Below, piece after piece: positions 2,452 to 43,653 of a DNA stretch of 64,000 nucleotides. The stretch covers positions 1 through 64,000 of IMG/VR virus record IMGVR_UViG_3300022925_002539. The stretch is one strand, 5' to 3'. Below the pieces are notes generated by a model. It saw only the letters and a program-made list of their open reading frames with translations, was not told the DNA's origin and searched no databases. The stretch comes from a virus. Within the stretch, counting starts at the first letter, position 1; each line of letters opens with the position of its first letter. The translations under genes were made by a program, and so were the position numbers.

Positions 2452-2688
2452 ATGGTTGTACTTTTACCATATCCAAACGGAATGACGTATCCTGAAATGG
2501 GTGATGAACATAATATATTTCAGTATGCAAATGAAATACGTGATTATGTAAATAGAGTATGTAAAGGTCCTTGGACTAGCGGACATGAGGATGTATTACA
2601 AGCAGGTTTGAGAGTTAGACTAGGAAATGAAAAAGATTTATTCATGCTTAAAATGAAATATGGATTGGATATAGTACAAAATGTATGA
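2452..2688 (+). CDS. hypothetical protein
   Basis: ORF track; abuts neighbours. Confidence 0.55.
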   Translation: MVVLLPYPNGMTYPEMGDEHNIFQYANEIRDYVNRVCKGPWTSGHEDVLQAGLRVRLGNEKDLFMLKMKYGLDIVQNV

Positions 2689-3820
2689 AGACATAAAGTT
2701 AATACTAGACAAAGAACAACTAAGACAAGATACAACTATAGAATTAATTGCTAGTGAGAACTATGCAAGTCAAGCAGTAATGGACTTGTGTGGTAGTATT
2801 TTTACTAACAAGTATGCAGAAGGTTATCCACGTAAACGTTACTATAATGGTTGCGAGTATATGGATGAGGTTGAGCAACTTGCAATAGATTTAGTTTGCG
2901 AACTTTATGGTTGTGAGTATGCAAACGTGCAACCACATTCAGGTGTAAATGCAAACACTGCAGTTTATCAAGCATTTATGAAACCTGGTGATGTACTTAT
3001 GGGTATGGATCTAGCAAGTGGCGGACACTTATCACACGGTGCACCTCCTACTCTAAGTGGTAAGTTTTACAATGCAGTCACTTATGGTGTTGATGATAAT
3101 GGTTTACTTGACTACGATAAAATAGAAGGTATTGCAAAACTTAATATGCCTAAGTTAATTGTTGCAGGAGCAAGTGCATATCCAAGACAGATAGATTGGA
3201 GTGCATTTAGACAAATTGCTGACAGTGTAGGTGCAATATTATTAGTTGATATGGCACACTATAGTGGACTAGTCGCTGGTCAAGTATATGATAGTCCATT
3301 TGGTTATGCAGATGTAGTGACAAGCACTACACATAAAACACTTCGTGGACCTAGAGGTGGCATGATCTTATGGGATGATCCTAAATGGTGCAAACGTATT
3401 AATAGTGCAATATTTCCAGGCACACAAGGTGGACCACTTATGAACATAATTGCTGCAAAAGCACAATGTTACAGTGAAGCATTACTTCCTAGTTTTGAAC
3501 AGTATGCACACCAAGTGATCAAAAATGCAAAAGTAATGTGCGAGGTATTTGAAGCACGTGGTTTTCCTGTACAAACAGGTGGCACAGATAGTCATATTAT
3601 ATTAATGGATTTAAGCAAAAGTAAGCATAGTGGTAGACAAGCTGCAGACTTACTGGAAGAAAATGGTATTACTGTTAATAAAAATGGTGTACCAAATGAT
3701 CCACGTAGTTTTGTAGAAACAAGTGGTATAAGAATAGGCACTGCCGCTGAAACTACAAAAGGTCATAAAGAAGATTTCTTTATTAACTTAGCAGGAAAAA
3801 TTTGTACAATACTAGGATAA
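2681..3820 (+). CDS. glyA: serine hydroxymethyltransferase
   Basis: LIASENY, NKYAEGYP, GGHLSHG, TTHKTLRGPRGG (PLP lysine), FPGTQGGP. Confidence 0.97.
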   Translation: MYEDIKLILDKEQLRQDTTIELIASENYASQAVMDLCGSIFTNKYAEGYPRKRYYNGCEYMDEVEQLAIDLVCELYGCEYANVQPHSGVNANTAVYQAFMKPGDVLMGMDLASGGHLSHGAPPTLSGKFYNAVTYGVDDNGLLDYDKIEGIAKLNMPKLIVAGASAYPRQIDWSAFRQIADSVGAILLVDMAHYSGLVAGQVYDSPFGYADVVTSTTHKTLRGPRGGMILWDDPKWCKRINSAIFPGTQGGPLMNIIAAKAQCYSEALLPSFEQYAHQVIKNAKVMCEVFEARGFPVQTGGTDSHIILMDLSKSKHSGRQAADLLEENGITVNKNGVPNDPRSFVETSGIRIGTAAETTKGHKEDFFINLAGKICTILG

Positions 3821-3824
3821 AACA

Positions 3825-4049
3825 ATGACAGTAACATATATGAAAGAAGGTTCACCTAAAAGTTGGGATAAAAGTTTACGTGTTTATGAGGTTACCTGGC
3901 CTAGTGGCAAAAAGGAAATCTGGAAAGATATCAATGCACGTGATTGTTTAACACGTTACGAAAACATGGATCCAATAGGCAACGGATTACAACTGCGTGA
4001 AATAGTTGGCAAAGAACTACAAATGCAAAAAATAATGGATAGCAAATGA
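3825..4049 (+). CDS. hypothetical protein
   Basis: ORF track. Confidence 0.55.
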   Translation: MTVTYMKEGSPKSWDKSLRVYEVTWPSGKKEIWKDINARDCLTRYENMDPIGNGLQLREIVGKELQMQKIMDSK

Positions 4050-5215
4050 AAGCATTAGTCATTGGTGCAGGTATAACCGGAGTTACTACCGCTTACTATC
4101 TAGCACGAGCAGACTATGATGTCACTATATGTGATGAAAGAAAATATCCAGCTATGGCTACCAGTTATGCTAATGGTGGACAACTAAGTGCAAGCAATGC
4201 TGAAACATGGAATAGCTGGCGTAATATTAAAAAAGGCATAAAGTGGTTAACACAACCTGATGCTCCTTTAAAAATAAACTTAACTCCTGAGTTAGACAAA
4301 TATAGTTGGTTTGTAAAGTTTATGCTTGAAATAAAAAATCGAGAAGTTAACTCTATTGAAACTTGTCGGATGGCTTTAGAAGCACACAAACTTTATAAGG
4401 ATATTGCAGACGAAGAAGGTATTAAATTTGATAAAGTAGAAAAAGGTATACTTCATGTATATACTAAAGATGAAGAATTTAACCTTGCTAAAAAAACAAA
4501 TGACTTATACAGACGTGCAGGGTTAGACAGATGGGAAGTAAGTCCACAAGAAATCAACAAGATAGAACCTGCACTAAGTAATCCTGATATAATTGGTGGA
4601 TATTATAACACTAGTGATTTTACAGGTGATATACACAAGTTCTGTGTTGAACTGACAAAAGTTTTAAAAAACAAATACAGTGTAGTATTTACAAGTAAAC
4701 CTGTTAATAGATTAGATTATAATGGGCCAGTAGTTGTATGTGCAGGCGTTGGTAGTAGGAAACTTGCAAACACTATAGAAGAGGATTTACCAATTTATCC
4801 TGTAAAAGGTTATTCAATTACAATAAACAATCCAGGTAATGCTCCGTGGGTAAGTTTATTAGACGATGAAGCCAAAATAGTTACTGCGAGACTGGGCAAG
4901 AATAGATTACGAGTAGCAGGTACTGCAGAATTTAATGGGTATAATACAGATATAGTACAAGCAAGAATAAGACCATTAATACGTTGGTCAGAACGTATGT
5001 TTCAAGATATAAACACAGAAGATATAAAACCCTGGGCAGGGCTAAGACCTATGACACCTAGTATGATGCCTATAGTCAAACAAAGTAAAACAAGATCAAA
5101 TGTATGGTATAATACAGGACATGGTCATTTGGGTTGGACTTTGAGTGCTTATACTGCACAAACAATTGTAGAAAAAATTAGAGGCTACAATGGACCTTTT
5201 TACTCATATAGATAG
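4046..5215 (+). CDS. dadA: D-amino acid dehydrogenase (FAD-dependent)
   Basis: GAGITG FAD motif, TSYANGGQLS, PIYPVKGYSIT, WAGLRPMTP, NTGHGHLGWT. Confidence 0.9.
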   Translation: MKALVIGAGITGVTTAYYLARADYDVTICDERKYPAMATSYANGGQLSASNAETWNSWRNIKKGIKWLTQPDAPLKINLTPELDKYSWFVKFMLEIKNREVNSIETCRMALEAHKLYKDIADEEGIKFDKVEKGILHVYTKDEEFNLAKKTNDLYRRAGLDRWEVSPQEINKIEPALSNPDIIGGYYNTSDFTGDIHKFCVELTKVLKNKYSVVFTSKPVNRLDYNGPVVVCAGVGSRKLANTIEEDLPIYPVKGYSITINNPGNAPWVSLLDDEAKIVTARLGKNRLRVAGTAEFNGYNTDIVQARIRPLIRWSERMFQDINTEDIKPWAGLRPMTPSMMPIVKQSKTRSNVWYNTGHGHLGWTLSAYTAQTIVEKIRGYNGPFYSYR

Positions 5216-5638: not shown

Positions 5639-6762
5639 TAGATCACTTATATAAAATTTGGAATATAAAAGATCAATACGTTGTAGCAGATCAGTTTACT
5701 GGATATGAAAGTATCTATAATAAACTTGACAGTTACACAAAAGAGCAGTACGATAAAGATCCACAAGCAGTAATAGATGAAGTTTTCGAACTGTATAGAA
5801 GTATAGGTTTAGTACCTATTGTATATTATACTCAAGCAGGGCTAGTACAAGCAGTAAAAACATTTTCACAACAGTCTTACAATGGTGTGAACAATAGTGT
5901 AATAGGATTAGGAAATAATCGAGGACAAACTATAAACAGGTTCTTATTTCCTAATATGATGACTGCAGAGCCTAAAGGTAGAGGTAGTAACAGTTTACGT
6001 GATAGGTTTTGGAACGATGCTAAACTAAAACGTGCAATTCGTATTTGTTTTGAATTTAGAACTGGTGATAAGTTATTAAGACCTACACAATTAAGAACTG
6101 CACTTGAACTAGTGACTGGTGAAAATGTTACCAATTTTAAAGCACAGAATGCTAAAGCAATAGCGGAACACTTGTGTCCTGTGCTTTGGGGCAGAGTGTA
6201 TGATTACAGTTGTGGCTATGGTGGAAGATTGTTAGGTATAGGTTCAAGTAATTTCAAATATGATTATATAGGCGTAGAACCTAATACTGAAACTGTAAAA
6301 TATCTTAATTATTTAAATGATATCGTCGATGAAGCAACAGGTGTAAGAGGTACTATCGTACAAAGTGTAAGCGAAGAATATCAACCTGAGGACATAGATT
6401 TAGCATTTAGTAGTCCTCCTTATTTTAACTTGGAGAAATATTCAGATGAAGAGACACAGTGTATGGTACAATTTAAAACAGAAGATGAATGGTTTGACGG
6501 ATACGTTGTACCGACCATGGAACACATACATAGAGGACTCAATAGAGAAGGACTTTTCGCAACTAACATCGCTGACTACAAAAGTTACGACAGAAAAGAA
6601 CCCTACGAGGTTACACAAAGATGGATCAACACTGCAGAAAAACTAGGATTCAAACACATACAAACAATTAAGATGATGCTTACTACAAGACCTGGTGTGG
6701 GCAATGATCGTAAAGAAGGAAGAGAAAAATGGGAGGGTGTATATGTCTTCAGTAAATTATAA
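5635..6762 (+). CDS. DNA amino-methyltransferase (m6A/m4C)
   Basis: Motif I DYSCGYGGR followed by motif IV SSPPYF. Confidence 0.85.
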   Translation: MIDHLYKIWNIKDQYVVADQFTGYESIYNKLDSYTKEQYDKDPQAVIDEVFELYRSIGLVPIVYYTQAGLVQAVKTFSQQSYNGVNNSVIGLGNNRGQTINRFLFPNMMTAEPKGRGSNSLRDRFWNDAKLKRAIRICFEFRTGDKLLRPTQLRTALELVTGENVTNFKAQNAKAIAEHLCPVLWGRVYDYSCGYGGRLLGIGSSNFKYDYIGVEPNTETVKYLNYLNDIVDEATGVRGTIVQSVSEEYQPEDIDLAFSSPPYFNLEKYSDEETQCMVQFKTEDEWFDGYVVPTMEHIHRGLNREGLFATNIADYKSYDRKEPYEVTQRWINTAEKLGFKHIQTIKMMLTTRPGVGNDRKEGREKWEGVYVFSKL

Positions 6763-7078
6763 AGTTACTACAAAAGTTCATTTTGATGGTAATAGATATG
6801 TCCACTTTGATAGCAAATATAAAGATCCAAAAGGTAGACGTTGTTATGCGGTAGTGTTCAACGATTTAAGTTTAAACGATATAATGTGTTTAACACCTAA
6901 GCAAGTAATGATGTTAAAAATTGCAAAAGGTGACCAAATCGATATAAAGGATTGGACAGAGTTTTATGGTATTACTCCTGATATGGTTGAGAATATGGAA
7001 CCTACAAAATATGGTGTTTCTATGCAATGTAAATATACATTTGAGGAAGTACTAGCACACAAAAGTAATATAAATTAA
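6743..7078 (+). CDS. hypothetical protein
   Basis: In frame with track ORF; start moved to ATG 6743 after a GGAGG SD. Confidence 0.55.
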   Translation: MSSVNYKVTTKVHFDGNRYVHFDSKYKDPKGRRCYAVVFNDLSLNDIMCLTPKQVMMLKIAKGDQIDIKDWTEFYGITPDMVENMEPTKYGVSMQCKYTFEEVLAHKSNIN

Positions 7079-7092
7079 TTTTTATAAAAGGG

Positions 7093-7159
7093 TTGACAGA
7101 ACATACAACATATAGTATTATATAAACATAATAAAAAAATAAATAACAACATATAGTAT
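7093..7159 (+). promoter_or_regulatory. sigma70 promoter with tandem NrdR-box-like sites
   Basis: TTGACA-N17-TATTAT (7093-7121); ACAACATATAGTAT at 7105 and 7146, 41 bp apart. Confidence 0.6.
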
Positions 7160-7172
7160 AAGGACCAAAAAT

Positions 7173-7421
7173 ATGAAAAATATAGCAGTTTTAAAGAAAT
7201 TTTCAAGTTACATGTTAGGCGCATTAATAGGTGGTGCATTGTTTTTAGGTGTTATAAAACTAACATCTATGTACTTTGGAGATCCATATTATGGACTAAT
7301 AGGAATGCTTGGTTTAGTTTTTATTTGGTTTACCTGGTCAATGAGTGTTAGTCAAGTTGAAAGTGAACAAAGAGAAGCACAATATGCTAAAGAAAGAGAA
7401 AAACTTAACTTAAAAGCCTAA
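7173..7421 (+). CDS. two-TM membrane protein
   Basis: Two hydrophobic segments and a charged C-terminal tail; AAGGA SD. Confidence 0.65.
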   Translation: MKNIAVLKKFSSYMLGALIGGALFLGVIKLTSMYFGDPYYGLIGMLGLVFIWFTWSMSVSQVESEQREAQYAKEREKLNLKA

Positions 7422-8532
7422 TATTATTTTCTAATTCCCCTAGGACAATGGCGGGTATGTTTTCGTAAAAATGATGAAAGTTATGTTCGAGAACTCCCGC
7501 CATTTCCATACGTAATTTTTCTAACTCACTTATATCTTTACCGCCAATATCATTTATAATTTTTGCAATAGCCTGTAAACGTTGTGTAGGGTCTTCTATA
7601 CCATCATAACTTTCGTCCCACCAATCACCAAATGTTTTAAAACCATAACTTTGTAAATATTTCAAACTGCCTGGTGCTTGAACTACTACAAATGGTTGAT
7701 GCATTACTACAGGTTTAAATATTTTTTCTGTAAAATGTATTTTATCTTGCCATACTGTTTCATTTACAACATGTAAAAAACTTGTATTCCAAGGATTTAA
7801 ATCGTCAATACTTATCTCGGCACTTTGATTTTCATGAGTATCAAAACTATGTGCTTGTACAGGACCAGTATATATCAATCCATTAGGATCTGGATTTGCT
7901 AAACTATAACATCCTCGTTTCAAATCTAACAACTCTAACAAATCTGTTCTATGTTGACGTAAAAGTCTGTTTGCACTTAACCATCTATATTTTATAGGTC
8001 TTGATTTGTAGTGTGTAAACATTTTTAATTTTTTATAATGTTTAAAATAAAATTCACTACAGATGTATGCATGTGCAAACCAGTGTACGTTTTTGATGTT
8101 TCTTCCTGCTAGTTTAGCTATGTCCTTACTATTAAGTTCACTATGTAAAACAATTGTGTGTCTATTATCATTGAATGCTTGTAAAAAATCCCAAAAAAAC
8201 TTATCGAGATTAACATCTATTGGTTCCCAACTGTGTTGGTAAAAGTTATAGTTTGTGTATTTTCGTAATTTATCTGGATTATGTAATCCATATATCCATT
8301 TTTCGTTATGGAAAAAATATTTTTTTGAACCTTTCTCAAATATATCTGGAGTTTTATGCCATCTTGGAAGAGGTAACGCTTCTAGATGCTTGTCATGCAA
8401 AAACTTCCAATGCTCTTGTAAATTATGATTGTATCTTATATTGTCAGGAAAATACATTAAGCAATAATCATCTTTAAACTGATTGCTAATTATATCTTCT
8501 GTAATGTGATTGATTAGTGTATAAGGTTCCAT
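7405..8532 (-). CDS. putative glycosyltransferase-like protein (paralog of 55239..56444)
   Basis: VVNET...TEKIFKP...QPF...L...GFKTF..WWDESYD motif. Confidence 0.55.
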   Translation of the reverse strand: MEPYTLINHITEDIISNQFKDDYCLMYFPDNIRYNHNLQEHWKFLHDKHLEALPLPRWHKTPDIFEKGSKKYFFHNEKWIYGLHNPDKLRKYTNYNFYQHSWEPIDVNLDKFFWDFLQAFNDNRHTIVLHSELNSKDIAKLAGRNIKNVHWFAHAYICSEFYFKHYKKLKMFTHYKSRPIKYRWLSANRLLRQHRTDLLELLDLKRGCYSLANPDPNGLIYTGPVQAHSFDTHENQSAEISIDDLNPWNTSFLHVVNETVWQDKIHFTEKIFKPVVMHQPFVVVQAPGSLKYLQSYGFKTFGDWWDESYDGIEDPTQRLQAIAKIINDIGGKDISELEKLRMEMAGVLEHNFHHFYENIPAIVLGELENNIRLLS

Positions 8533-8602
8533 TATATGCGTATATTTATACTAGTATAATTCTCGTTTTGAGAAAATAAATACAGTACCCCAGAGGAGAG
8601 AC

Positions 8603-11108: not shown

Positions 11109-11517
11109 AGGGAACATTGAGGGAAGAGATCCTGAAAGGGAAAATAATCAAGGGTACATAATTGAAGCAATTAAATCTGGCTATTATTGTGAAGTAGATA
11201 TATGGGGAAAAGTAAACGGAGAACTTTGGTTAGGGCATGATGCTCCACAATATAAAACAGATAGTCGTTTTTTAAATCATCCTAAAATAGTTGTGCATTG
11301 TAAAAATAAGTTAGCAATTGATAATTTAAATGGTTGGGGTATACATTGGTTTTGGCATCAGGATGATGATTACACAATTACAAGTCAAGGCTGGACCTGG
11401 GCTTATCCTGGTAAACCTAACGCAGGTCATAATTGTATTGCAGTCATGCCAGCAACACATTTAGATGTAAGTGAATATGCAGGTGTATGTAGTGATTATA
11501 TCGGACAATATAAATGA
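11089..11517 (+). CDS. glycerophosphodiester phosphodiesterase-like protein
   Basis: ISHRGN, EN, CEVDIW, LGHD, HCKN, GVCSD. Confidence 0.7.
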   Translation: MYLISHRGNIEGRDPERENNQGYIIEAIKSGYYCEVDIWGKVNGELWLGHDAPQYKTDSRFLNHPKIVVHCKNKLAIDNLNGWGIHWFWHQDDDYTITSQGWTWAYPGKPNAGHNCIAVMPATHLDVSEYAGVCSDYIGQYK

Positions 11518-12887
11518 TTAAATTAGTCATATTTGACTTAGATGGTGTCCTTATAGATAGCAAGCAGATTCATTACGAAGCTCTTAACCGTGCTTTGGGT
11601 GATGAGTATGCCATTAGTATAGAAGAACATTTAGCAAACTATGATGGTTTGCCTACCAGGTCCAAATTAAATATGCTATCAGAACGTAAAGGCTTGCCCA
11701 CGGATCGTCATGCGTCAATCGCCAGGGCCAAACAAAAGGCAACAGTTGATATACTAAAAGAGACTGTTGAACCTCGAGACGATTTTACGGACATGTGTCG
11801 CGAGTTGAAAGACAGAGGTTATACACTAGCCTGTGCAAGCAATGCAGTTCGCGACACAGTAAAAATGAGTTTGCTTAAATTAAACCTTATAGAATATTTT
11901 GATTTTTGGTATAGTAATGAAGATGTTGAAAAACCTAAACCACACTTTGAAATGTATTTTAAATGTATGCTTACTGCAAACTGTAAGCCTAGCGAAACAC
12001 TTATAATAGAAGACAGTCATATAGGTAGACAAGCAGTATTAGATAGTGGTGCAAATTTACTAGCAGTAGAGGATACTAAAGATATTTACTTGAGCAAAGT
12101 GCTAGATGCTATAGAAGAATATGAAGAACCTAAACGTAATATACCATGGAAGAGTAAAAAAATGAATGTACTAATACCAATGGCAGGTGCAGGAAGTAGA
12201 TTTGCTGAACAAGGATACACATTTCCTAAACCTCTTATAGAAGTAGGTAATAAGCCTATGATACAAGTTGTAGTAGACAATTTAAATATTGAAGCAAACT
12301 ACATTTTTATAGTGCAAAAAGAACATTACGAAAAGTATAATTTAGAAACAGTTTTAAATCTAGTAAAACCTGATTGTACCATTGTACAAGTTGAAGGTGT
12401 AACTGAAGGCGCTGCCTGTACAACGCTTTTAGCAAAGGAGTATATAGACAATGAAGACCCGCTCATCATCGCGAACTCGGACCAATTCGTCGAATGGAAC
12501 TCAAACGAAGTCCTTTATGCATTTTCAACAGAGGGCGTGGGAGGTGGCATCCTCACGTTTGAAAGCACACATCCAAAATGGAGTTATGCACGTACAGACC
12601 AAAATGGATGGGTTACCCAAGTTGCTGAAAAACAACCTATTTCGATTAACGCCACTGTTGGTATCTATTATTGGGCACGTGGTTGTGATTACGTTAGTTC
12701 TGCACTTCAGATGATTGATAAGAACATTAGAACTAATAACGAATTTTATGTATGTCCTGTGTTTAATGAATTTATACAAGGTGGAGGTAAAGTAAGGATT
12801 AAGCATATTAATCCAGAAGGAATGTGGGGATTAGGTACACCTGAAGATCTTACACATTTTTTAGCCAATTATAGTGGAACTTATTAA
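11514..12887 (+). CDS. HAD phosphatase / sugar-phosphate nucleotidyltransferase fusion
   Basis: N-terminal FDLDGVL, KP.P, IIEDS; C-terminal IPMAGAGSRF...PKPLI, IANSDQ, GLGTPEDL. Confidence 0.85.
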   Translation: MIKLVIFDLDGVLIDSKQIHYEALNRALGDEYAISIEEHLANYDGLPTRSKLNMLSERKGLPTDRHASIARAKQKATVDILKETVEPRDDFTDMCRELKDRGYTLACASNAVRDTVKMSLLKLNLIEYFDFWYSNEDVEKPKPHFEMYFKCMLTANCKPSETLIIEDSHIGRQAVLDSGANLLAVEDTKDIYLSKVLDAIEEYEEPKRNIPWKSKKMNVLIPMAGAGSRFAEQGYTFPKPLIEVGNKPMIQVVVDNLNIEANYIFIVQKEHYEKYNLETVLNLVKPDCTIVQVEGVTEGAACTTLLAKEYIDNEDPLIIANSDQFVEWNSNEVLYAFSTEGVGGGILTFESTHPKWSYARTDQNGWVTQVAEKQPISINATVGIYYWARGCDYVSSALQMIDKNIRTNNEFYVCPVFNEFIQGGGKVRIKHINPEGMWGLGTPEDLTHFLANYSGTY

Positions 12888-13417
12888 TTTGCTAACGGAT
12901 TGTCTAATGCCCGTTGTATTTTACGCATAAGTCTATCTTCTAGTTCTTTAGTATCACGATTCACTGTTTCTCTCAAACTATCTCTTTTAGTTTCAAATCT
13001 ACTTTCGGCATCAGTTATCATGTTACGGACATCGTCCACACTTTTACGAACCATGTCTTCTGTTCTGTCTGCTTGTTGTTCAATACGTAGTATATCATCA
13101 CGCAACCCGCCTTTGATGTCACGTGTATATTCTACAGTGTCTTCCATTTTGGATTCCATGATTTGCATACGTTTGTCATATGCATTGATTTTTGCTTCGT
13201 ATTCTTCTTGTTGTTCTACAAATTCTATAGCCTGTTCTACTTTTTGATACATTAAAAAGCCACCATACAATGCACCAAGTACACTACCAATAACTGCAAT
13301 AAGAGCAGATATTGACATAAAACTAACTTTGAAGCCAAGGATACGGAACTGTTTATTCTTTAAGTTCTCTATACCTTCTTCCATGTTTTCAATTTCTTCA
13401 CCTAAATCTTTTGCCAT
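12884..13417 (-). CDS. single-TM coiled-coil membrane protein
   Basis: TM segment near residues 32-56, then a long heptad region. Confidence 0.7.
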   Translation of the reverse strand: MAKDLGEEIENMEEGIENLKNKQFRILGFKVSFMSISALIAVIGSVLGALYGGFLMYQKVEQAIEFVEQQEEYEAKINAYDKRMQIMESKMEDTVEYTRDIKGGLRDDILRIEQQADRTEDMVRKSVDDVRNMITDAESRFETKRDSLRETVNRDTKELEDRLMRKIQRALDNPLAN

Positions 13418-13418
13418 G

Positions 13419-13850
13419 TTATTTCTCCAAACCTTGTTTAGATTGGCTTTGTAATTCTCTTAACTTTTTAAGTTCTTGCTCTAATTTTAAAACTTCCAAT
13501 CTTTTCTTCTTTAATTCTAATTGATAGAGTGTGTTACAGTTAATACGTTCTTTAGGACCGTCAAGCGGTATTGTGATTCTTGCATATACTCCAACATCCT
13601 TAGTACTGTTGCCTATAGTTGTATTGTCGTCAAAAGGACTTTGATAGTTGTCTATTATACCAGTCACACCAAATTCCAAATTGGTACTACCACCAATAGC
13701 ATTTTGGCAATCTAAATCGCCTGCTTTAAATTTATCGCTAGAATAATTACCCGATGCGTTTGGTAATTGAAGATTTAATGAACTGCTATTGGCGAATGCT
13801 GTGCTAGATAAAACTGTAAGTGTTAGTGTTGTAAATACAAATTTTTTCAT
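13419..13850 (-). CDS. exported protein, beta-hairpin plus coiled coil
   Basis: Signal peptide ending AFA; two Cys; GVYARITIPL amphipathic strand. Confidence 0.7.
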   Translation of the reverse strand: MKKFVFTTLTLTVLSSTAFANSSSLNLQLPNASGNYSSDKFKAGDLDCQNAIGGSTNLEFGVTGIIDNYQSPFDDNTTIGNSTKDVGVYARITIPLDGPKERINCNTLYQLELKKKRLEVLKLEQELKKLRELQSQSKQGLEK

Positions 13851-13852
13851 AC

Positions 13853-14236
13853 CTATTCATGCTTGAATCTAGAACATATTTTAGATGATATACTTGAAGA
13901 TTTTAAATCCTCATTCCTCATCTTTGACCTACTACATACGTATTCAGCATTGTATTTGTCAACTTCTCTAATATAAACATCTACTTCTGCACGTTCCAAA
14001 TATTTTATATTCAATATTGTATATTGAGATACAAATGGAATAGGTCTCCAGTCTTTATCGAACACTCCTATCTCATAATATTCAACATCATTCCTTTTAT
14101 TGAAAATTTGCATACGGGTGACAATTAAATCATCCATATATGCATAACTCCATTTAGGATAAGTTGGAGTCATCTCATGACTAAAAGCACCATGAGAAAA
14201 CAGAATCAACCATAATGTTATAAAATATTTATACAT
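13853..14236 (-). CDS. exported PapD/fimbrial-chaperone-like protein
   Basis: Signal peptide then HEMTPTY; beta-rich; paired Cys. Confidence 0.5.
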   Translation of the reverse strand: MYKYFITLWLILFSHGAFSHEMTPTYPKWSYAYMDDLIVTRMQIFNKRNDVEYYEIGVFDKDWRPIPFVSQYTILNIKYLERAEVDVYIREVDKYNAEYVCSRSKMRNEDLKSSSISSKICSRFKHE

Positions 14237-14740
14237 TTACTTTGCTACACACACCGCTTCAATTGTTGCTGAATAGTTACCACCTGGAAATGCTTTGTTT
14301 CCACCATTTGTAGCAACCGAAGTAGACTTAAACCATGTAGAACCAGTTGCGGTTAGATCAAACTGTGTAGTTTGTCCAGATACTGTCTTTGCACTTTCAT
14401 AACCTGCCATGCCTGTTGCATCACTTACGCTACTAACTTCTGTAGAGCCTGTCCATGATACTGTATCATTAAGTGACGGGCTAGTACTAAATGAAGTTGG
14501 TGTAGTAATTTGTGCATAATAAGCATCAGCCAATGTTACATCATATCTTACAATAGGCTGTACACCACCGTCGGCGGCAGCTGTTGTTAGTGTATAAGCA
14601 TTTGGGTTTCCATATGTACCTGGTGTATCAGTTGTTATTACACAACGTGATTGCACAGTTCCACTTATTGGTACATCAACAGCTTGTGCTGATAATGTGA
14701 ATAAACTCATAGCAACTATTATACTTGCCTTTTTGAGCAT
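14237..14740 (-). CDS. exported fimbrial-subunit-like protein
   Basis: Signal peptide ending AQA; ISGTVQSRC N-terminus; PGGNYSATIEAVC C-terminal strand. Confidence 0.6.
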   Translation of the reverse strand: MLKKASIIVAMSLFTLSAQAVDVPISGTVQSRCVITTDTPGTYGNPNAYTLTTAAADGGVQPIVRYDVTLADAYYAQITTPTSFSTSPSLNDTVSWTGSTEVSSVSDATGMAGYESAKTVSGQTTQFDLTATGSTWFKSTSVATNGGNKAFPGGNYSATIEAVCVAK

Positions 14741-14749
14741 TTTTCTCTC

Positions 14750-15643
14750 CTATTTGTATTGCTGAGAAATCATTTTCTCATGCAATATCTGTTGTGCTAA
14801 GCCGTTTCTCAACCCGGCTTTGCTATCTGGTAGTTTAGCATCTACCAATCTAATTGTTTCTTTGTACTGACCACCTGGTATAGTTGCGGCAAGATACGTA
14901 TTATTAATCTGATTTTGCATAATATTATTCATTTGTTCTATTCTTTGATTTTCTGCAAAAAGTGCTGCAGTATCAGATGCTGACATTAATTTTTCTAATC
15001 TATACTTTCTCTTCTTTTCTTCAGCTTCTTCTTTTTCTTTTTCTTCTTCCTCAGCTAGTCTTTCTTCATTTTCTTCTATAGATAATTTTTCCTCATCGTT
15101 TAAATTAACAAACTCATCTTTTGTAGCATCATATAAATCATCTAGATTAACTGTAGGTACAACAGGCACTGGTGTCTTATACCCTGGACAACTTGGACTA
15201 AATTGTGGGTCATAACAAGGATCAACTTTGTAACTGTAGATAACACTCGCATCATCTACAGTACCTGTACCCTCTACTTCTATAGAACCATCTCCCCATG
15301 CTTCTCTAGGGATATCACCTATTCCAATAACCTTTCTAACTTCTATTCCTCCTGGTGCACCTGACCAGTCTTCTGTATCTCTAAAAACATATCCAGTACC
15401 GTTTGCATTTTTATTTTGTACATGAACTTTCATATCATCTTCAGGATTTTTATTTGCAGTGTATCTATAAAATACTCCATTAATATCTAAGCCAGGTGGT
15501 GCAGGTAGTACATCTTTCATACTCCAACTGTGTCCGCTTTGAGCAGCATTACCAGTCGTACCATAATATGGTGCAATGTTATCAGAGTAACAATAGTAGG
15601 GATAAAATCCCACCAATACTCCAAGTAGCAGCTTTTTTAACAT
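14750..15643 (-). CDS. exported protein with DPC.DP..SP.CPGY motif and acidic coiled coil
   Basis: Hydrophobic N-terminus, beta-rich domain, Cys motif, E/K-rich linker. Confidence 0.65.
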   Translation of the reverse strand: MLKKLLLGVLVGFYPYYCYSDNIAPYYGTTGNAAQSGHSWSMKDVLPAPPGLDINGVFYRYTANKNPEDDMKVHVQNKNANGTGYVFRDTEDWSGAPGGIEVRKVIGIGDIPREAWGDGSIEVEGTGTVDDASVIYSYKVDPCYDPQFSPSCPGYKTPVPVVPTVNLDDLYDATKDEFVNLNDEEKLSIEENEERLAEEEEKEKEEAEEKKRKYRLEKLMSASDTAALFAENQRIEQMNNIMQNQINNTYLAATIPGGQYKETIRLVDAKLPDSKAGLRNGLAQQILHEKMISQQYK

Positions 15644-16127
15644 CTACTTGTTCTTCCTTACCGTTCTTTTCATGTTTCTTTTTATCTTCGTGTGATTCCC
15701 AACCAATCTTGGCTGCCTCTCCAATTTTACCTTCATAAGGACATGGTGTACCTGCCATCATCATAGCATCAAATACTTTCTTATCCTGACACATTACACT
15801 AACTGCAGCAACTTTCATGCCCATGTCATATAGTGTCTTTGCATTTTTTAATCTTATACAGTTGTCTTCTGTAAATGTAGTACCTGCACTTATACCTAAT
15901 ATCTGTGTTTGTACTGCACCGGCAACACCAATTGTACATAAATCACTATTACTGCCACTACTAAACTGCGGACTAATAGCACTCGGTGGTGGTGATTTTA
16001 CAGTTGTTTCCATATTTCCTTCAGTAATAATTTTACTGTTCGTTGTGCTTTCTGTTACTATTGTTTCTGCATTAGCCATGCCAATGAAGAATACAGCTAG
16101 GCTGTAAATAAATATTTTTCTAATCAT
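15582..16127 (-). CDS. exported Cys-containing protein with C-terminal anchor
   Basis: Signal peptide ending ANA; PPPSAISP; NC.RLK..K.L..MGMKVAAVSVMCQD...AGTPCP; hydrophobic C-terminus. Confidence 0.7.
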   Translation of the reverse strand: MIRKIFIYSLAVFFIGMANAETIVTESTTNSKIITEGNMETTVKSPPPSAISPQFSSGSNSDLCTIGVAGAVQTQILGISAGTTFTEDNCIRLKNAKTLYDMGMKVAAVSVMCQDKKVFDAMMMAGTPCPYEGKIGEAAKIGWESHEDKKKHEKNGKEEQVDVKKAATWSIGGILSLLLLL

Positions 16128-16238
16128 AGATTCTCTCTTTGTAAGACAATATTGTCATATGTAATAATATTTATGTAAGCCTCTCTTTTAATAAATTTAT
16201 ACAAATATTTATAGGTTGTTTGTCGTATTTTCCAGCGA

Positions 16239-16338: not shown

Positions 16339-17394
16339 ATGTTTGATAACAGTATACATCGTATTGGGTTTGCATGTAAGTATTTTCATCCAGACCGTAC
16401 ACTAAAGAAAAAACAGTTAGAAGAAATAGAACGTCCACTTAATGAACGTACTACAACTATTACATGGCTTAACAGACAGACTAAAGAAGTTGCAGAACAA
16501 CGTTTGTGGGATATTATGCAACACAATATTAAAAGTGTTGAAAGACTAATTACTTACGTAGGGAGTTTACCTAATGAGTTACGAATGGTTCGATTGGGCA
16601 GTAGCATATTGCCTGCTTACACTGAGTCTAGTTGGAGTTACTATTGGCAGTTACCTGATGTACGCCAGTATCTCGAAACACATCTTGCACCTGTCGGGGA
16701 TAAAGCTCGTGCTCTTGATGTACGGATTAGTATGCACCCTGGTCAGTTTACTGTGCTTGCAAGCGATAATCCAGATATTGTTGATAGGAGCATAGAAGAA
16801 TATGAATATCACACCGATGTCCTCAGGTACATGGGATATGGCAAGTCCTTCCAGGACGCCAAATGCAACGTACATATCGCAGGTAGAAAAGGTCCACAAG
16901 GCATCATTTCAATCCTCCCAAGACTTTCTCCGGAATCGAGAAATGTCCTTACAATCGAGAATGATGAGAATTCATGGGGACTGGATGCGAGTCTCGAACT
17001 TACGGAACACTGTGCCCTCGTTCTCGATATACACCACCACTGGGTTAAAACGGGTGAATACATCTCGCCCCTGGACGAAAGAGTATCTCGCATAAAAGAC
17101 AGTTGGCGAGGTGTAAGGCCTGTCATACATTACAGTGTCAGCAGAGAAGATTACCTAGTTGATCATTGTTCAATAACAAAACCTAATTACAATACTCTAC
17201 TTGAAGACAATTACAAAAAAGCTAAACTAAGAGCCCACAGTGACATGTACTGGAATTCTGCAGTTAATGAATGGGCAATACAATTTAACAAAGAATTTGA
17301 CATTATGTGTGAAAGCAAGTTCAAACAAGTAGCATCAATTGACTTTTACAATCAAATGTACCAACAGAATATAAGTGCTAATTTATTTAAATAG
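16339..17394 (+). CDS. uvsE: UV-damage endonuclease (UVDE)
   Basis: RIGFAC, RISMHPGQFTVLAS, TIENDE, LVLDIHHH, HYS, RAHSD, MCESK. Confidence 0.92.
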   Translation: MFDNSIHRIGFACKYFHPDRTLKKKQLEEIERPLNERTTTITWLNRQTKEVAEQRLWDIMQHNIKSVERLITYVGSLPNELRMVRLGSSILPAYTESSWSYYWQLPDVRQYLETHLAPVGDKARALDVRISMHPGQFTVLASDNPDIVDRSIEEYEYHTDVLRYMGYGKSFQDAKCNVHIAGRKGPQGIISILPRLSPESRNVLTIENDENSWGLDASLELTEHCALVLDIHHHWVKTGEYISPLDERVSRIKDSWRGVRPVIHYSVSREDYLVDHCSITKPNYNTLLEDNYKKAKLRAHSDMYWNSAVNEWAIQFNKEFDIMCESKFKQVASIDFYNQMYQQNISANLFK

Positions 17395-17692: not shown

Positions 17693-17810
17693 AATAGATC
17701 TCCTTCCTAGCAATTAAACGATTTTTAAAATCGTGTTTTATTTAGACTACAACTTTTCTTTATAAACATATGCTATATGGTTCTAGATACAAAAAATACA
17801 CATTTTCTGG

Positions 17811-17838
17811 TTGACACAATCCTATTATATGCTATTAT
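17811..17838 (+). promoter_or_regulatory. sigma70-like promoter
   Basis: TTGACA-N16-TATTAT with no credible ORF directly downstream. Confidence 0.55.
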
Positions 17839-17844
17839 AACTGT

Positions 17845-17967
17845 ATAAATTGATTCCGCAGGTAACGAAAGTTCGTGGATCGCCCATAGAGGTCTAGGTT
17901 CAAAAACATACACATAATAAAAAAGATTGCCTTACACACTTAAATGATAGAAGGTAATCTTTTTATT
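17845..17967 (+). ncRNA. candidate small RNA
   Basis: GAAA-tetraloop stem (17852-17881) and a long terminal hairpin (17916-17967), lying between two promoters. Confidence 0.4.
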
Positions 17968-17994
17968 GACATGGGTACAAAATTATTATATAAT
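17966..17994 (+). promoter_or_regulatory. sigma70 consensus promoter
   Basis: TTGACA-N17-TATAAT. Confidence 0.8.
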
Positions 17995-18028
17995 GTGCCT
18001 ATACATTTAAAAGACAGAAAGGAATATT

Positions 18029-18307
18029 ATGTCTAATACAAAAACTAAAATGACTAAACAAGCAAGAGTATTAAATGCTCTTAAAGATGGAAACCGATTA
18101 ACAAGTGCAGATATCCGTAATAAATTTAAAGCAGGAAATCCGCAGGCAGTTATCCAAGCATTACGTTTTGCTGGTAACCCAATTTACTTAAATGAAGTAA
18201 AGTCTACTACAGGTAGAAAGAGTATGAGATATACTTTAGGTACACCAAGCAGAAAAGTTATTGCTGCTGGTTACAAAGCTCTAGCTTCCAAGCAAGTTTC
18301 TTTATAA
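18029..18307 (+). CDS. winged-helix DNA-binding protein
   Basis: KQARVLNALKDG..LTS..I...F...NP..VI..LR..G..IYLN...Y.LGTPSR. Confidence 0.7.
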   Translation: MSNTKTKMTKQARVLNALKDGNRLTSADIRNKFKAGNPQAVIQALRFAGNPIYLNEVKSTTGRKSMRYTLGTPSRKVIAAGYKALASKQVSL

Positions 18308-18313
18308 AACTAT

Positions 18314-18341
18314 AAGAGAGGACAGAAATGTCCTCTCTTTT
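18314..18341 (+). terminator. Rho-independent terminator
   Basis: aagagaggaca-gaaa-tgtcctctctt-tt. Confidence 0.85.
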
Positions 18342-18355
18342 CATTTGAGGATTTG

Positions 18356-18529
18356 ATGACTAAAACTCCTGATGGCATTGAGCTTGCATTATTACATGCA
18401 CTAAAATACGAACTAGCGACTTTTAAAGTAGCAGATAAAAAAGCTCGTTGGGATATAAATGAATCGGAATCCAAAGCCATAGAGAAATGGATGGTAAATA
18501 GGATTAAAGACATTTCCAAAAGATTATAA
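18356..18529 (+). CDS. hypothetical protein (57 aa)
   Basis: Not in track; GAGG SD; stop overlaps next ATG. Confidence 0.5.
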   Translation: MTKTPDGIELALLHALKYELATFKVADKKARWDINESESKAIEKWMVNRIKDISKRL

Positions 18530-19386
18530 TGATGTACGATTGCATAATTCCAATAGGATGTAGCCATATGTATGGCGCTGAACATGAAAGCACAAATAAT
18601 CTGACAAATCCAAGTAAACACACATGGGTAGATCTTATTGGTGAACATATGGATTTGCCTGTTTATAATTGTAGTGTTCCAGGTGCAAGTAATCAAACAA
18701 TTTTAAGGAAATTACAAATTGCAATAGACTATTGTAAAAGAAGAAATCTAAATCCACTGTTTATTTTACAGTGGTCACAATATCATCGTTATGAAACTAT
18801 TGCTGAATGTGCTTACAATGTATGTGAAGATTTTCCTTACATTCGTACATACGTAGAAATCTTTAATGCAAGTGATAATACAGAAGTTACTAATTGGGCT
18901 CATAGTTTTTATAAATTATTTGATGATTCAAGTTTGTTTTATGAAACAACTCGTGTTGTAGAACATGCAAATTTGTCAGCACAAAACTATAATGTTATAA
19001 ATTGTTTAGCTCATAGTTGGAAAGACAAACCAGTATTTAAAAGTCAATTTGTAGAAGGACATCGTAAAGATCAAGTAATTTTTGAAGCACTAGATGATAT
19101 ATACAAAGATTTAAATTGTAATGAAAGTACAAAACTTAAAAAATATGGTGTTAGGGGATATGATTGTCCTACAACAACTGCAAACTTACATTTGATGTGG
19201 GAAAACATAGAAAAATATAATTGGTGGCATTGGGAGGAAGAACCATATACAACTGGTTTAAAACATTGGTGTCAAGAAAATAATTTAGAACTTGGTCCTA
19301 ACAAACACCCTTTAGAAAGTGCAAATAAAGTTGCATTTGAATTTGCAATTAATAACAAATCTTTTACAGATATGATTGGAATATAA
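18529..19386 (+). CDS. SGNH-hydrolase-like protein
   Basis: IGCSHMYG, PGASN..I.R, C-terminal HP. Confidence 0.55.
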   Translation: MMYDCIIPIGCSHMYGAEHESTNNLTNPSKHTWVDLIGEHMDLPVYNCSVPGASNQTILRKLQIAIDYCKRRNLNPLFILQWSQYHRYETIAECAYNVCEDFPYIRTYVEIFNASDNTEVTNWAHSFYKLFDDSSLFYETTRVVEHANLSAQNYNVINCLAHSWKDKPVFKSQFVEGHRKDQVIFEALDDIYKDLNCNESTKLKKYGVRGYDCPTTTANLHLMWENIEKYNWWHWEEEPYTTGLKHWCQENNLELGPNKHPLESANKVAFEFAINNKSFTDMIGI

Positions 19387-23045: not shown

Positions 23046-23053
23046 TATAAATA
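23046..23053 (+). promoter_or_regulatory. T4-type late promoter TATAAATA
   Basis: Exact T4 late consensus before the structural block; TAAATA core also at 8577, 9337, 22431, 27453, 30020, 40550, 42118, 50653, 54644, 57546, 63826. Confidence 0.75.
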
Positions 23054-23079: not shown

Positions 23080-23664
23080 ATGGCAAAACAAACCGTAAAC
23101 TTAGGTAGTAGTGCAAACGACGGTACAGGTGATCCGTTACGTACTGCCTTTGATAAAATCAACGATAATTTTGATGAACTTTATCTATACAGTACTGCTG
23201 CAAGTGGCAACAATATTACAATAACTGGCAACACTATTGCTAGTGATAATACAAATGGTAATGTTATTATTGATCCAAATGGTACAGGTAGACTAGTAAT
23301 AGCAACAGGTGCAGAAATTAGATTAACAGACCATACCGACAATGGAGTTGCATACGTTGATGCTGATGGCGATATACAAACAAGTGGTGCATTTACTTTC
23401 GATGGAACAAATGTAGCAACTACAGGAAATATAAGTGTTAATACAAGATTATTACTAGAAGATAACAGAATTACAACACAAACAACTAACGATGATATTG
23501 ATATTGATCCAAATGGTACAGGTAAAATAAATTATATTACAACTGCTCAAACAACAGTAGGAGCTGCAGGTGGTGCTGATGCCTTACCGGCTACACCATC
23601 AACATATTTTCAAATCAAAATCAACGGTGTAAATTACGTAGTACCAGCATACGCAGTTAGTTAA
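23080..23664 (+). CDS. baseplate/tail-fibre protein (gp9/gp10-like N-terminus)
   Basis: KQTVNLG..ANDGTGDPLRTAFDKINDNF.ELY; DPNGTG repeats. Confidence 0.8.
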   Translation: MAKQTVNLGSSANDGTGDPLRTAFDKINDNFDELYLYSTAASGNNITITGNTIASDNTNGNVIIDPNGTGRLVIATGAEIRLTDHTDNGVAYVDADGDIQTSGAFTFDGTNVATTGNISVNTRLLLEDNRITTQTTNDDIDIDPNGTGKINYITTAQTTVGAAGGADALPATPSTYFQIKINGVNYVVPAYAVS

Positions 23665-42222: not shown

Positions 42223-43653
42223 ATGATTGAAATGATTACAGCTTTAATGGCTGGCGTACTATATGGATTACTAATAGGCATAATACCTAGTGCAGGTGCT
42301 ACTACAGGTTTGGTTGCACTGTTTGGTTTTATCAGTTACTTTGTTCATGAACCATATTTAGGTGTAGTATTCTTAATGGCAGTGGTTGCTGCTAGTACCA
42401 CAGGCGATAGTTTTACTTCAATATTGTTAGGAATACCAGGAGCAAACAGTGCCGCTGCTACTATGGTAGATGGCTTTCCACTTGCACAACAAGGCAGAGC
42501 AAGTTATGCAATCAGTGCCGCCGTTACCACTTCAACAGTAAATGGTTTAATTTGGGGTTGTTTAGTGTTCTTATTATTACCTTGGTATACAAACTTATTG
42601 ATGATTATTGGTGTACCTGAACTTTGGGCATTTACTGTACTTGCACTAGCAACAGTTGGATTTATAAGTACAAAATTTTGGTTCCGTAGTTTGTGTGCAA
42701 TTTGTATTGGTATATTTTTAGGCATGGTAGGAGTTAACCCAGAAACAAATGAGCCACGTTTTACTGGTAGTTGGTTTTATTTAGAAGATGGTATACAACT
42801 TATGCCAGTAGTTGCAGGACTATTTGCTATTCCAGAATTAATTAAAGGACTGTTCAATAGAACTAAGACTGCCACTATTGTAAAAAGCGAATTAACAGAA
42901 GGTGTCAAAGAATTTTGGCGTAATCGTTGGTTAGGACTACGAGGCGGTTTTATTGGTGCTTTTATAGGTTTACTGCCTGGACTAGGAGGTGCTATGGCAG
43001 ATTGGATGGCATACGGAAGTGCAGTCGCTAGTAATCCAAATGAACGTTTTGGTAACGGCAATATTAAAGGTGTTATAGGACCAGAAGGTGCTAATAATGC
43101 ACAGAAAGCAACAAGTATGATTCCAACAGTTTTATTTGGTATACCAGGTGCACCGTTTGCGGCAGTTTTAATGAGTTTGTTTATGTATCTAAATTTTGAA
43201 TTAGGCACACCAGATTTAGCCTACGACACAGAATTTTTTACAAGTATGACATTTGGCTTTTTAAGTGCAACAGTTATAGTTGCAATATTGTGTATATTTT
43301 TAATAAAGCCAATTAGTTATATTACCAGTGTCCCTTACAAATATTATTTTCCTATTTTACTAGCAGTAATTGTATGGAGTAGTATGCAGTATACAGGAGG
43401 CTGGGAAGATTTTGTAATGTTAGCTGTATTTTCCTGCATAGGATTTGTTTGCAGACATTACAAATTTAGTAGACCTGCTCTACTAATAGGATTTATATTA
43501 TCCGAAAAAATAGAAAAACTTTCCATACAGATGTTTGCTTTGTATGACATTGAAAGTTTAATTACAAGACCGATATTTATGGTATTAGTTATTTTTATTA
43601 TAGGTATCTTTGCATATAGTTTTATAAAGAAAGGAAAAATCGATTATGCGTAA
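42223..43653 (+). CDS. tctA: tripartite tricarboxylate transporter permease
   Basis: SILLGIPG..SAAAT..DG.P.AQQG, GLLPGLG, GPEGANNA, P...FGIPG; about 12 TM. Confidence 0.9.
   Translation: MIEMITALMAGVLYGLLIGIIPSAGATTGLVALFGFISYFVHEPYLGVVFLMAVVAASTTGDSFTSILLGIPGANSAAATMVDGFPLAQQGRASYAISAAVTTSTVNGLIWGCLVFLLLPWYTNLLMIIGVPELWAFTVLALATVGFISTKFWFRSLCAICIGIFLGMVGVNPETNEPRFTGSWFYLEDGIQLMPVVAGLFAIPELIKGLFNRTKTATIVKSELTEGVKEFWRNRWLGLRGGFIGAFIGLLPGLGGAMADWMAYGSAVASNPNERFGNGNIKGVIGPEGANNAQKATSMIPTVLFGIPGAPFAAVLMSLFMYLNFELGTPDLAYDTEFFTSMTFGFLSATVIVAILCIFLIKPISYITSVPYKYYFPILLAVIVWSSMQYTGGWEDFVMLAVFSCIGFVCRHYKFSRPALLIGFILSEKIEKLSIQMFALYDIESLITRPIFMVLVIFIIGIFAYSFIKKGKIDYA

Follow-up and report, generated by a model that had tools for sequence, protein, structure and literature searches.

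A composite six-gene cassette of marine phages that may encode an usher-independent envelope module

In the chaperone-usher pathway, the second domain of the chaperone serves to target it to the usher, and the DEv-IgG domains of the MSCRAMM adhesins work by insertion of a beta-strand. Llp of phage T5 and similar receptor-masking proteins that phages export to the envelope are encoded beside receptor-binding genes and act on the surface of the host, and T7-like phages keep their lysis genes after the tail-fibre genes. Here we analysed a stretch of viral DNA of 64,000 nt (positions 1 to 64,000 of IMG/VR record IMGVR_UViG_3300022925_002539, referred to as the window), in which a block of six open reading frames (ORFs) occupies positions 12884-16127 of the minus strand; we refer to it as the cassette and to its genes, in their order on that strand, as g6, g5, g4, g3, g2 and g1. 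It was found that the cassette is composite: a trio, g4-g3-g2, is set in a frame, g6-g5-g1, and each of the two occurs independently of the other. No family, structure or paper describes any of the six proteins. The picture that we favour, with a probability of roughly 0.4, is that of a mobile, late-expressed cassette whose two modules would form an envelope-bound Ig-fold structure and change the cell surface or envelope around the time of lysis. The division into trio and frame, the link between g5 and g5-like proteins of pelagiphage type, the promoter statistics across relatives and the RNA contigs presented below are new.

An earlier sequence-only reading of the window had described six contiguous minus-strand genes, opposed to their neighbours, as an operon of exported proteins. 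The ORF listing returned exactly the same coordinates, with both flanking genes on the plus strand: g6 at 15582-16127 (181 amino acids), g5 at 14750-15643 (297), g4 at 14237-14740 (167), g3 at 13853-14236 (127), g2 at 13419-13850 (143) and g1 at 12884-13417 (177), all on the minus strand. Genes g6 and g5 overlap out of frame by 62 nt (15582-15643, minus strand), and this overlap carries, in different frames, the code for the hydrophobic tail at the g6 C-terminus and for the g5 signal peptide; it is also present in the coordinates of relatives, where both frames are conserved in proteins down to about 50% identity. The remaining junctions measure 9 nt (g5-g4), 0 nt (g4-g3), 2 nt (g3-g2) and 1 nt (g2-g1), and the strongest Shine-Dalgarno sequence of the six genes (AGGAGAG) precedes g4. 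Negative GC skew in the window is restricted to 12-16 kb, that is, to the cassette block. The N-termini of g6 to g2 all show a basic n-region, a hydrophobic core and an AxA-like site, a pattern that is conserved in alignments of relatives, and these five proteins are predicted to be exported with Sec signal peptides, in agreement with what had been read before. The sixth product, g1, had been described as a transmembrane (TM) segment plus a coiled coil, and one N-terminal TM segment followed by a coiled coil was indeed observed. The paired cysteines that had been noticed in several of the proteins proved to be invariant or nearly invariant across relatives (C33/C164 in g4, C101/C121 in g3 and C48/C105 in g2).

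We collected 78 related viral contigs that hold a relative of g4. In all of them the order g6-g5-g4-g3-g2-g1 on one strand was kept as far as the contigs reach, with identities of the cassette relatives between 30 and 97% and with varying flanks. The genes that flank the cassette in the window, a HAD/nucleotidyl transferase gene (11514-12887, plus strand) and UvdE (16339-17394, plus strand), recur only in the closest contig of this set. The synteny of the cassette is by far beyond chance, and its homologues are found in a fixed neighbourhood and are not scattered. The closest cassette-bearing relative is a complete genome of 328 kb that has terminal repeats and encodes a gp23 capsid protein of T4 type. 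Two further complete genomes contain the cassette, one of 152.7 kb in which gp23 is also present and one of 173.5 kb in which gp23 was not hit, and each of the three carries a single copy. Since the cassette is found in genomes with and without gp23, it therefore moves between phage lineages.

The six genes had previously been taken as one system, and this part of the sequence-only reading did not stand, because trio and frame occur separately in phages and bacteria. In the T5-like Vibrio phage pVp-1, genes 0077-0079 are g4-, g3- and g2-like (hidden Markov model E values of 4e-12, 4e-7 and 4e-11) and are followed by a small lipoprotein gene. This trio is located between an unannotated gene for a product of 861 amino acids, which we read as a putative tail fibre, and the genes for a holin and an M15 endolysin, and g6 and g1 are absent anywhere in the pVp-1 genome. 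The frame alone is found in pelagiphage HTVC115P and 80 pelagiphage-type viral contigs, where, behind a g6 homologue, there comes a g5-like protein of 390-580 amino acids that has a signal peptide, and where no g4, g3 or g2 was detected. Of the 79 pelagiphage-type contigs in which g6 was hit, 61 also hold a g1 homologue (E 1e-18 to 1e-40), at a distance of 1.3-3 kb downstream of g6, and the remaining 18 loci break off shortly after g6. The frame in these contigs is preceded by tail-fibre-like genes.

The trio is also present in bacteria. When 400 sampled Pseudomonadota genomes were searched with the g4 profile, three matched. Two large, high-GC genomes carry a g4-like, a g3-like, a g2-like and a second g4-like gene in a row (L178, 7705-9525; L179, 7916-9745), and this four-gene cluster has ribokinase-like and ada-like genes at its sides and rpoN-, hpf- and ptsN-like genes nearby; the neighbouring genes were named from reading their translations, not from a family search. 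In the third genome, a plain trio lies between recombinase-like and dedA-like genes. The bacterial trios showed no phage genes and matched no known family, and the two trio-bearing genomes tested, G191 and G342, have neither g6 nor g1. The second g4-like protein of bacteria, whose mature form starts with AIIGTC, does not have the N-terminal extension of about eight residues, and in this respect it would resemble the first (tip) subunit of a strand-exchange fibre.

The cassette appears to be transcribed late. A T4-type late promoter, TATAAATA, is situated at 16206..16213 on the minus strand, 79 nt upstream of the g6 start codon. This sequence is the core of the T4 late promoter, and it is depleted in the window, with four copies against 13 expected, three of which stand just upstream of an ORF on the same strand. 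Such avoidance of TATAAATA elsewhere would be expected of a motif that works as a late promoter throughout the genome. Among 55 distinct relatives, 32 have TATAAATA within 200 nt upstream of g6, against 0.033 per 200 nt in the background, and none has it ahead of g5, g4, g3, g2 or g1; this distribution fits a single late transcription unit. The two other intergenic copies in the window are at 8543-8550 (minus strand), 11 nt before the minus-strand ORF 7405-8532, and at 23046-23053 (plus strand), 27 nt before the ORF 23080-23664.

In addition, we looked at RNA. At least 12 salt-marsh metatranscriptome runs hold 28-74% of the sequence words sampled from the cassette, and contigs from four salt-marsh metatranscriptomes span all six genes, mostly at 99% identity or more. 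The depth of these contigs is uneven and drops to zero over a neighbouring stretch. Variants listed within g1 in the RNA contigs (13061-13118) are spaced in multiples of three. Taken together, the contigs and the spacing of the variants suggest transcription in nature and purifying selection. The depth was at its maximum over g4/g3 in all four runs, and this was not used for ranking the genes, as contig depth cannot rank them. With the same restriction that contig depth cannot rank genes, the highest depth of the 11 kb compared was seen at 17808-18541 in all four metatranscriptomes; this segment covers a basic ORF of 92 amino acids (18029-18307, beginning MSNTKTKMTKQ).

Within the trio, g3 consists of a signal peptide and a single PapD-like (MSP-type) Ig domain with the C101-C121 pair, 127 amino acids in total. 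The TAA stop codon of g4 directly abuts the g3 start codon in the same frame, and the read-through was therefore folded as one chain, with TAA read as Q and with an alignment made of 19 in-frame fusions together with g4-only and g3-only rows. The fused model had a predicted local distance difference test (pLDDT) score of 77.4 and a predicted template-modelling (pTM) score of 0.48, the latter being uninformative on a contact between g3 and g4. The g3 part of the model (residues 192-295; Foldseek probability 1.00) matched the N-domains of the chaperones FimC (Z 9.2), Caf1M (9.0), DraB (9.0), PapD (8.7), SafB (8.6) and CsuC (7.2), and the superpositions with Z of 8.6-9.2 gave root-mean-square deviations (rmsd) of 2.6-3.1 Å over 94-99 residues. 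MSP domains scored similarly (Z 7.7-8.8, the highest being that of MOSPD2). The unrelated Ig domain CsxA outscored the chaperones with a Z of 9.5, and the result is therefore a fold assignment and not proof of function. On this model, g3 is predicted to adopt the PapD-like/MSP superfold, a seven-stranded s-type Ig sandwich; the single PapD-type Ig domain that had been proposed for it thus holds at the level of fold, by both Foldseek and structural superposition. AmoB/PmoB were rejected as fold relatives, the Foldseek top hits to them being two-domain alignments at an rmsd of 35 Å. A structure search in BFVD returned only unnamed small viral proteins.

At the N-terminus of mature g3 there is a near-invariant histidine (residue 20, HEMTPTYP), which is restricted to the cassette type. 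A copper 'histidine brace' was considered for this position and discarded, since the homologues of pVp-1 and of bacteria begin with LTLAPMY, QSMSPMR or VGLGPLR. The conserved part of this N-terminus is the x-P motif of the first PapD-like strand.

The g4 protein is composed of a signal peptide, an N-terminal extension of the form V-x-V-x-I-x-G-x-V (VDVPISGTVQSR, nt 14645-14680, minus strand) and an Ig-like beta-sandwich, and its C-terminal G-x-Y-x-A strand is tied to the cysteine of the first strand (C33-C164). In the model, g4 is predicted to be an Ig-like sandwich with a disordered extension: residues 16-31 have a pLDDT below 50, and their alternating-hydrophobic pattern before C33 is conserved. 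The pattern h-x-h-x-G-x-h-x-x-x-C can be followed down to the bacterial homologues. The best solved matches were the DEv-IgG domains of SdrD, FnBPA, ClfB and SdrE, with Z of 6.3-7.6 over 112-117 residues. Ig-type folds are therefore predicted for both g4 and g3. It had been claimed that g4 has the layout of a chaperone-usher pilin; this is borne out as far as the N-terminal extension, the G-x-Y-x-A strand and the cysteine tie are concerned, but its best structural matches include no chaperone-usher pilin, and neither g4 nor its profile belongs to a pilin family (Fimbrial, SCPU and others) in Pfam, NCBIfam or PDB sequences.

Such folds also allow another explanation, in which g4 and g3 are two small Ig-domain binding proteins of the periplasm that remain unpolymerised, without donor-strand chemistry, and serve, for instance, to inhibit or decoy envelope proteins of the host or phages that arrive. 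In its favour, both folds are of a generic Ig or MSP type with middling Z scores, no pilin family fits, the C-terminal half of g4 resembles the repeats of giant adhesins, and small exported Ig-like proteins are common in phages. This explanation does not account for the fixed trio of g4, g3 and g2 across phages and bacteria, nor for an extension that is conserved, disordered and alternating-hydrophobic in g4 and missing in the second bacterial paralogue, and we consider it unlikely.

The third member of the trio, g2 (PHROG 37374), has a signal peptide, an amphipathic beta-hairpin that is stapled at its base by C48-C105, and a short coiled coil behind it. The two amphipathic strands are separated by a variable loop (nt 13563-13685, minus strand). 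An Lpp-like C-terminal lysine on g2 was considered and dropped, as it is not conserved.

Of the frame proteins, g6 has at least 8000 matching protein clusters, and homologues of it are also present in cultured pelagiphages and other phages. It has a signal peptide, a very conserved helical domain with four cysteines (residues ~43-146, nt 15690-16001, minus strand), which are invariant within the cassette type, and the hydrophobic C-terminal tail (residues 166-181, nt 15585-15632, minus strand). It belongs to PHROG 20531, a family of unknown function, and a search of the ESM Atlas with g6 returned viral hypothetical clusters only; the same search with g5 gave no match. The g5 protein consists of a signal peptide, a beta-rich domain with a nearly invariant C143/C152 pair, an acidic linker and a conserved C-terminal domain ending in LHExMxxQY. 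About 57 C-terminal columns of g5 align with the pelagiphage-type g5-like proteins (hhalign probability 84%, E 8e-6), and Pfam scans of g5 and the g5-like proteins, member by member, revealed no consistent family. In g1, an N-terminal TM segment (residues 26-56, nt 13247-13321) precedes a coiled coil, and the protein is predicted from these features to be a type II membrane protein with the coil in the periplasm. The length of the coil varies while the C-terminal LDNPLAN stays constant; the near-invariant peptide LQRALDNPLAN is encoded at nt 12887-12919 (minus strand).

The g1 protein thus has the architecture of an i-spanin (N-terminal TM plus periplasmic coiled coil), a likeness of architecture only, and this raises the question of whether the cassette is a spanin-like lysis accessory that bridges the inner and outer membranes, with g1 as inner spanin and g2 or g5 as its outer partner. 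The weak hit of g1 to an Rz-like PHROG (E 0.092) goes in the same direction, as do the late expression, the separation of the g2 stop and the g1 start by 1 nt, the location of the pVp-1 trio directly before the holin and endolysin genes and that of the pelagiphage-type frame behind tail-fibre-like genes, the place of the lysis genes in T7-like phages. An outer-membrane lipoprotein is missing, though: neither g2 nor g5 has a conserved lipobox cysteine, a lipoprotein g5 having been rejected on the ground that relatives do not keep its signal-peptide cysteine, and g1 contains no embedded ORF. Moreover, no holin or endolysin adjoins the cassette in this window, and the bacterial trios, which stand in housekeeping regions without g1, would be left unexplained. 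We therefore regard a lysis accessory as a doubtful alternative to an envelope-bound Ig-fold structure.

Several names in GenBank records, 'OmpA family protein', 'lysozyme' (roseophage CRP-810) and 'transport protein tonB' (MW202481), stand beside or over g6- and g1-like genes (L005, 4833-6641; L004, 5344-6450). These labels had no Pfam support at E<=0.01 and were not used as evidence of a linkage to lysis; gp51 of CRP-810, the one named 'lysozyme', matches the g1 profile (E 3e-8). In HTVC115P, gp46, annotated as a toxin-activating lysine-acyltransferase, is encoded a few genes downstream of the g1-like gene (L001, 558-1007).

The absence of an usher, also noted by the sequence-only reading, extends to a wider range of genomes. 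No match to the usher family PF00577 was found at E<=0.1 in the record that contains the window or in the three complete cassette-bearing phage genomes. Among the three trio-bearing bacterial genomes, two contain no usher, and the third has a sub-threshold hit of 21 bits, 920 kb away from the trio. Pfam gave no meaningful match for any of the six proteins, and for g3 there was no PapD hit at E<=1; a two-domain chaperone (PapD_N plus PapD_C) was looked for, and g3 has one domain only. Similarly, profile searches of NCBIfam and PDB sequences assigned none of the six to a family, those of the PDB with g5, g6, g4 and g2 gave chance hits only, and all PHROG hits of the six are to families of unknown function.

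These results bear on the possibility of a classical pilus, for which the phage would supply subunit and chaperone and the host the usher. In its favour are solely that g3 has a PapD-like fold and that g4 is laid out like a pilin. With 127 amino acids, g3 has no second chaperone domain, the trio is present in two bacterial genomes that have no usher at all, and the cassette travels between unrelated phage types; it is thus highly improbable that a host usher is involved. Nearly as improbable is it that the proteins are associated with virions, joining or decorating the particles, for example after lysis. Late expression would be consistent with such a role, and so would the vicinity of tail-fibre-like genes in the pelagiphage-type contigs and pVp-1. 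On the other hand, five of the six proteins have Sec signal peptides and disulfide pairs and one is a membrane protein, the trio is found in bacteria outside any phage context, and we found no proteomic report in the literature that places cassette proteins in virions.

It seems possible, then, that the cassette, horizontally mobile and transcribed late, puts six proteins into the envelope of the infected Gram-negative cell. Most likely, g3 would cap or hold g4 in the periplasm by beta-strand complementation, and g4 units may join to each other via their N-terminal extensions. The most likely role of g2 would be to anchor or pass g4 at the outer membrane, in place of an usher. In the frame, g6 and g1 may serve as inner-membrane anchors, the coiled coil of g1 spanning the periplasm, and g5 would be soluble, its beta-domain being lineage-specific and its C-terminus conserved; g6, g5 and g1 together would probably form a periplasm-spanning scaffold. 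The N-domain of g5 differs between phage lineages, which suggests a lineage-specific ligand on a common scaffold. A role at or after lysis is suggested by the late expression and, in other phages, by the neighbouring tail-fibre-like and lysis genes; the likeliest purpose would be to alter the cell surface or envelope around the time of lysis, for example by masking receptors on cells and debris. The sequence-only reading is partly supported by these data, the cassette being an envelope module that had not been described, independent of an usher, and no classical pilus.

A bolder version, which we put forward tentatively and hold to be rather improbable as a whole, would make the trio a self-sufficient, usher-independent route to donor-strand-linked Ig-fold fibres, with g3 as a half-chaperone that passes the subunits on to a minimal pore of oligomerised g2 hairpins in the outer membrane; it would be a bacterial system that was spread by abundant marine phages and became coupled to the frame.

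A number of observations weigh against the envelope-bound Ig-fold structure proposed here. No sequence family in Pfam, NCBIfam or PDB sequences ties any of the cassette proteins to pili, and in the literature we found no description of such a cassette and none of its function. In g3 a second chaperone domain is missing, and the final strand is a short one, held by the disulfide. For g4, Z scores of 6.3-7.6 are in the range where common folds score too, and the 50 best structural matches, a list that is shared with g3, include no chaperone-usher pilin; the pTM score of the fused model does not help on the contact of the two proteins. Entry of g2 into the outer membrane, or its oligomerisation, is something that we infer. 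The AF2 model of g6, a helical one, is weak (pLDDT 60.5) and found no usable structural match, with a best E of 1.1 in Foldseek and a best Z of 3.6 in VIA. Lastly, DNA carry-over would be compatible with the contigs from the RNA libraries.

The window is part of a viral record of 101.6 kb with an estimated completeness of 29%, and its source is a large marine T4-like phage. It holds many host-like genes, among them SHMT, a D-amino-acid-oxidase-type flavoprotein, TctA, a ClpB-like ATPase and UDP-glucose dehydrogenase, in the stretches 2681-5215, 42223-44707 and 51474-53747; this richness fits a jumbo phage. Relatives of g4 numbered 1663 at E<=0.001 among clusters at 90% identity, none of them named, and the family is narrow, with 94 representative clusters at 50% identity. 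In the relatives of the cassette, the g2-g1 junction is a hot spot of insertion, and g1 always follows the inserts. These include genes for small TM proteins, a membrane protein with an EF-hand and two TM segments, class-3-lipase-like and DUF1353-like genes, and a protein of 113 amino acids that looks like a small beta-barrel; insert loci are L077/L078 (7402-8589), L054/L079 (~6474-8276) and L055 (7287-7628). Copies of the cassette were also seen in bins of metagenome-assembled genomes (MAGs) labelled Rhodobacteraceae (five different copies in one bin), Methanobacteriota and Polaribacter (L086, L087, L088, L089; G005). These contigs are most likely phage contigs that were mis-binned. A search of genome contigs with the g2 profile found only MAG contigs that resemble mis-binned phage, and the g4 of pVp-1 as query had no match among genome contigs.

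The cassette is very common in marine viral metagenomes, and g4 and g6 are present in phages from 150 to 330 kb. If the trio does assemble Ig-fold subunits by means of a half-chaperone and without an usher, a much-studied task of envelope biogenesis would be solved in a new and minimal way, and it would mean that lytic phages remodel the surface of a cell that is about to burst. The split into a bacterial-type trio and a phage-type frame offers experimental handles, namely the cultured T5-like Vibrio phages (genes 0077-0079 of pVp-1) for the trio and the cultured pelagiphages for the frame.

Compared with the two-component spanins (lambda Rz/Rz1, T7 gp18.5/18.7), the cassette has in common the i-spanin layout of g1, its late expression and, in pVp-1, a trio beside holin and endolysin. 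It differs in having neither an outer-membrane lipoprotein partner nor an embedded gene, in that g1 is always accompanied by g6 and g5 and not by a lipoprotein, and in that the trio is also bacterial. The DEv-IgG domains of the MSCRAMMs (SdrD, FnBPA, ClfB and SdrE), which are the best solved matches to the body of g4, belong to multi-domain, cell-wall-anchored adhesins of Gram-positive bacteria and have no sequence kinship with it. The MSP/VAP domains share the PapD-like superfold with g3; they are eukaryotic and cytosolic, and the resemblance is one of fold only. With T5 Llp there is a functional analogy, and only for the proposed purpose: Llp is a single early lipoprotein without homology to the cassette proteins.

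The comparison with chaperone-usher pili (FimC-FimA, PapD-PapK, Caf1M-Caf1, SafB-SafA, DraB and the archaic CsuC-CsuA/B) goes furthest. In both, subunit and chaperone are exported by Sec, and g3 superposes on the N-domain of the chaperone over about 95 residues; the Ig-type subunit g4 has a free N-terminal strand, in which hydrophobic residues alternate and a glycine is present, as well as a C-terminal G-x-Y-x-A strand, and the g4 and g3 genes adjoin and are translationally coupled. Unlike those pili, the cassette has no usher, one chaperone domain instead of two and no membership in the sequence families; g4 is not near any solved pilin, and the obligatory third partner, g2, has no counterpart there. 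The trio of the cassette is, in addition, set in the g6-g5-g1 frame, and its expression is driven by a phage late promoter. The cassette is thus at most a stripped-down analogue of the chaperone-usher systems, and not a member of the pathway.

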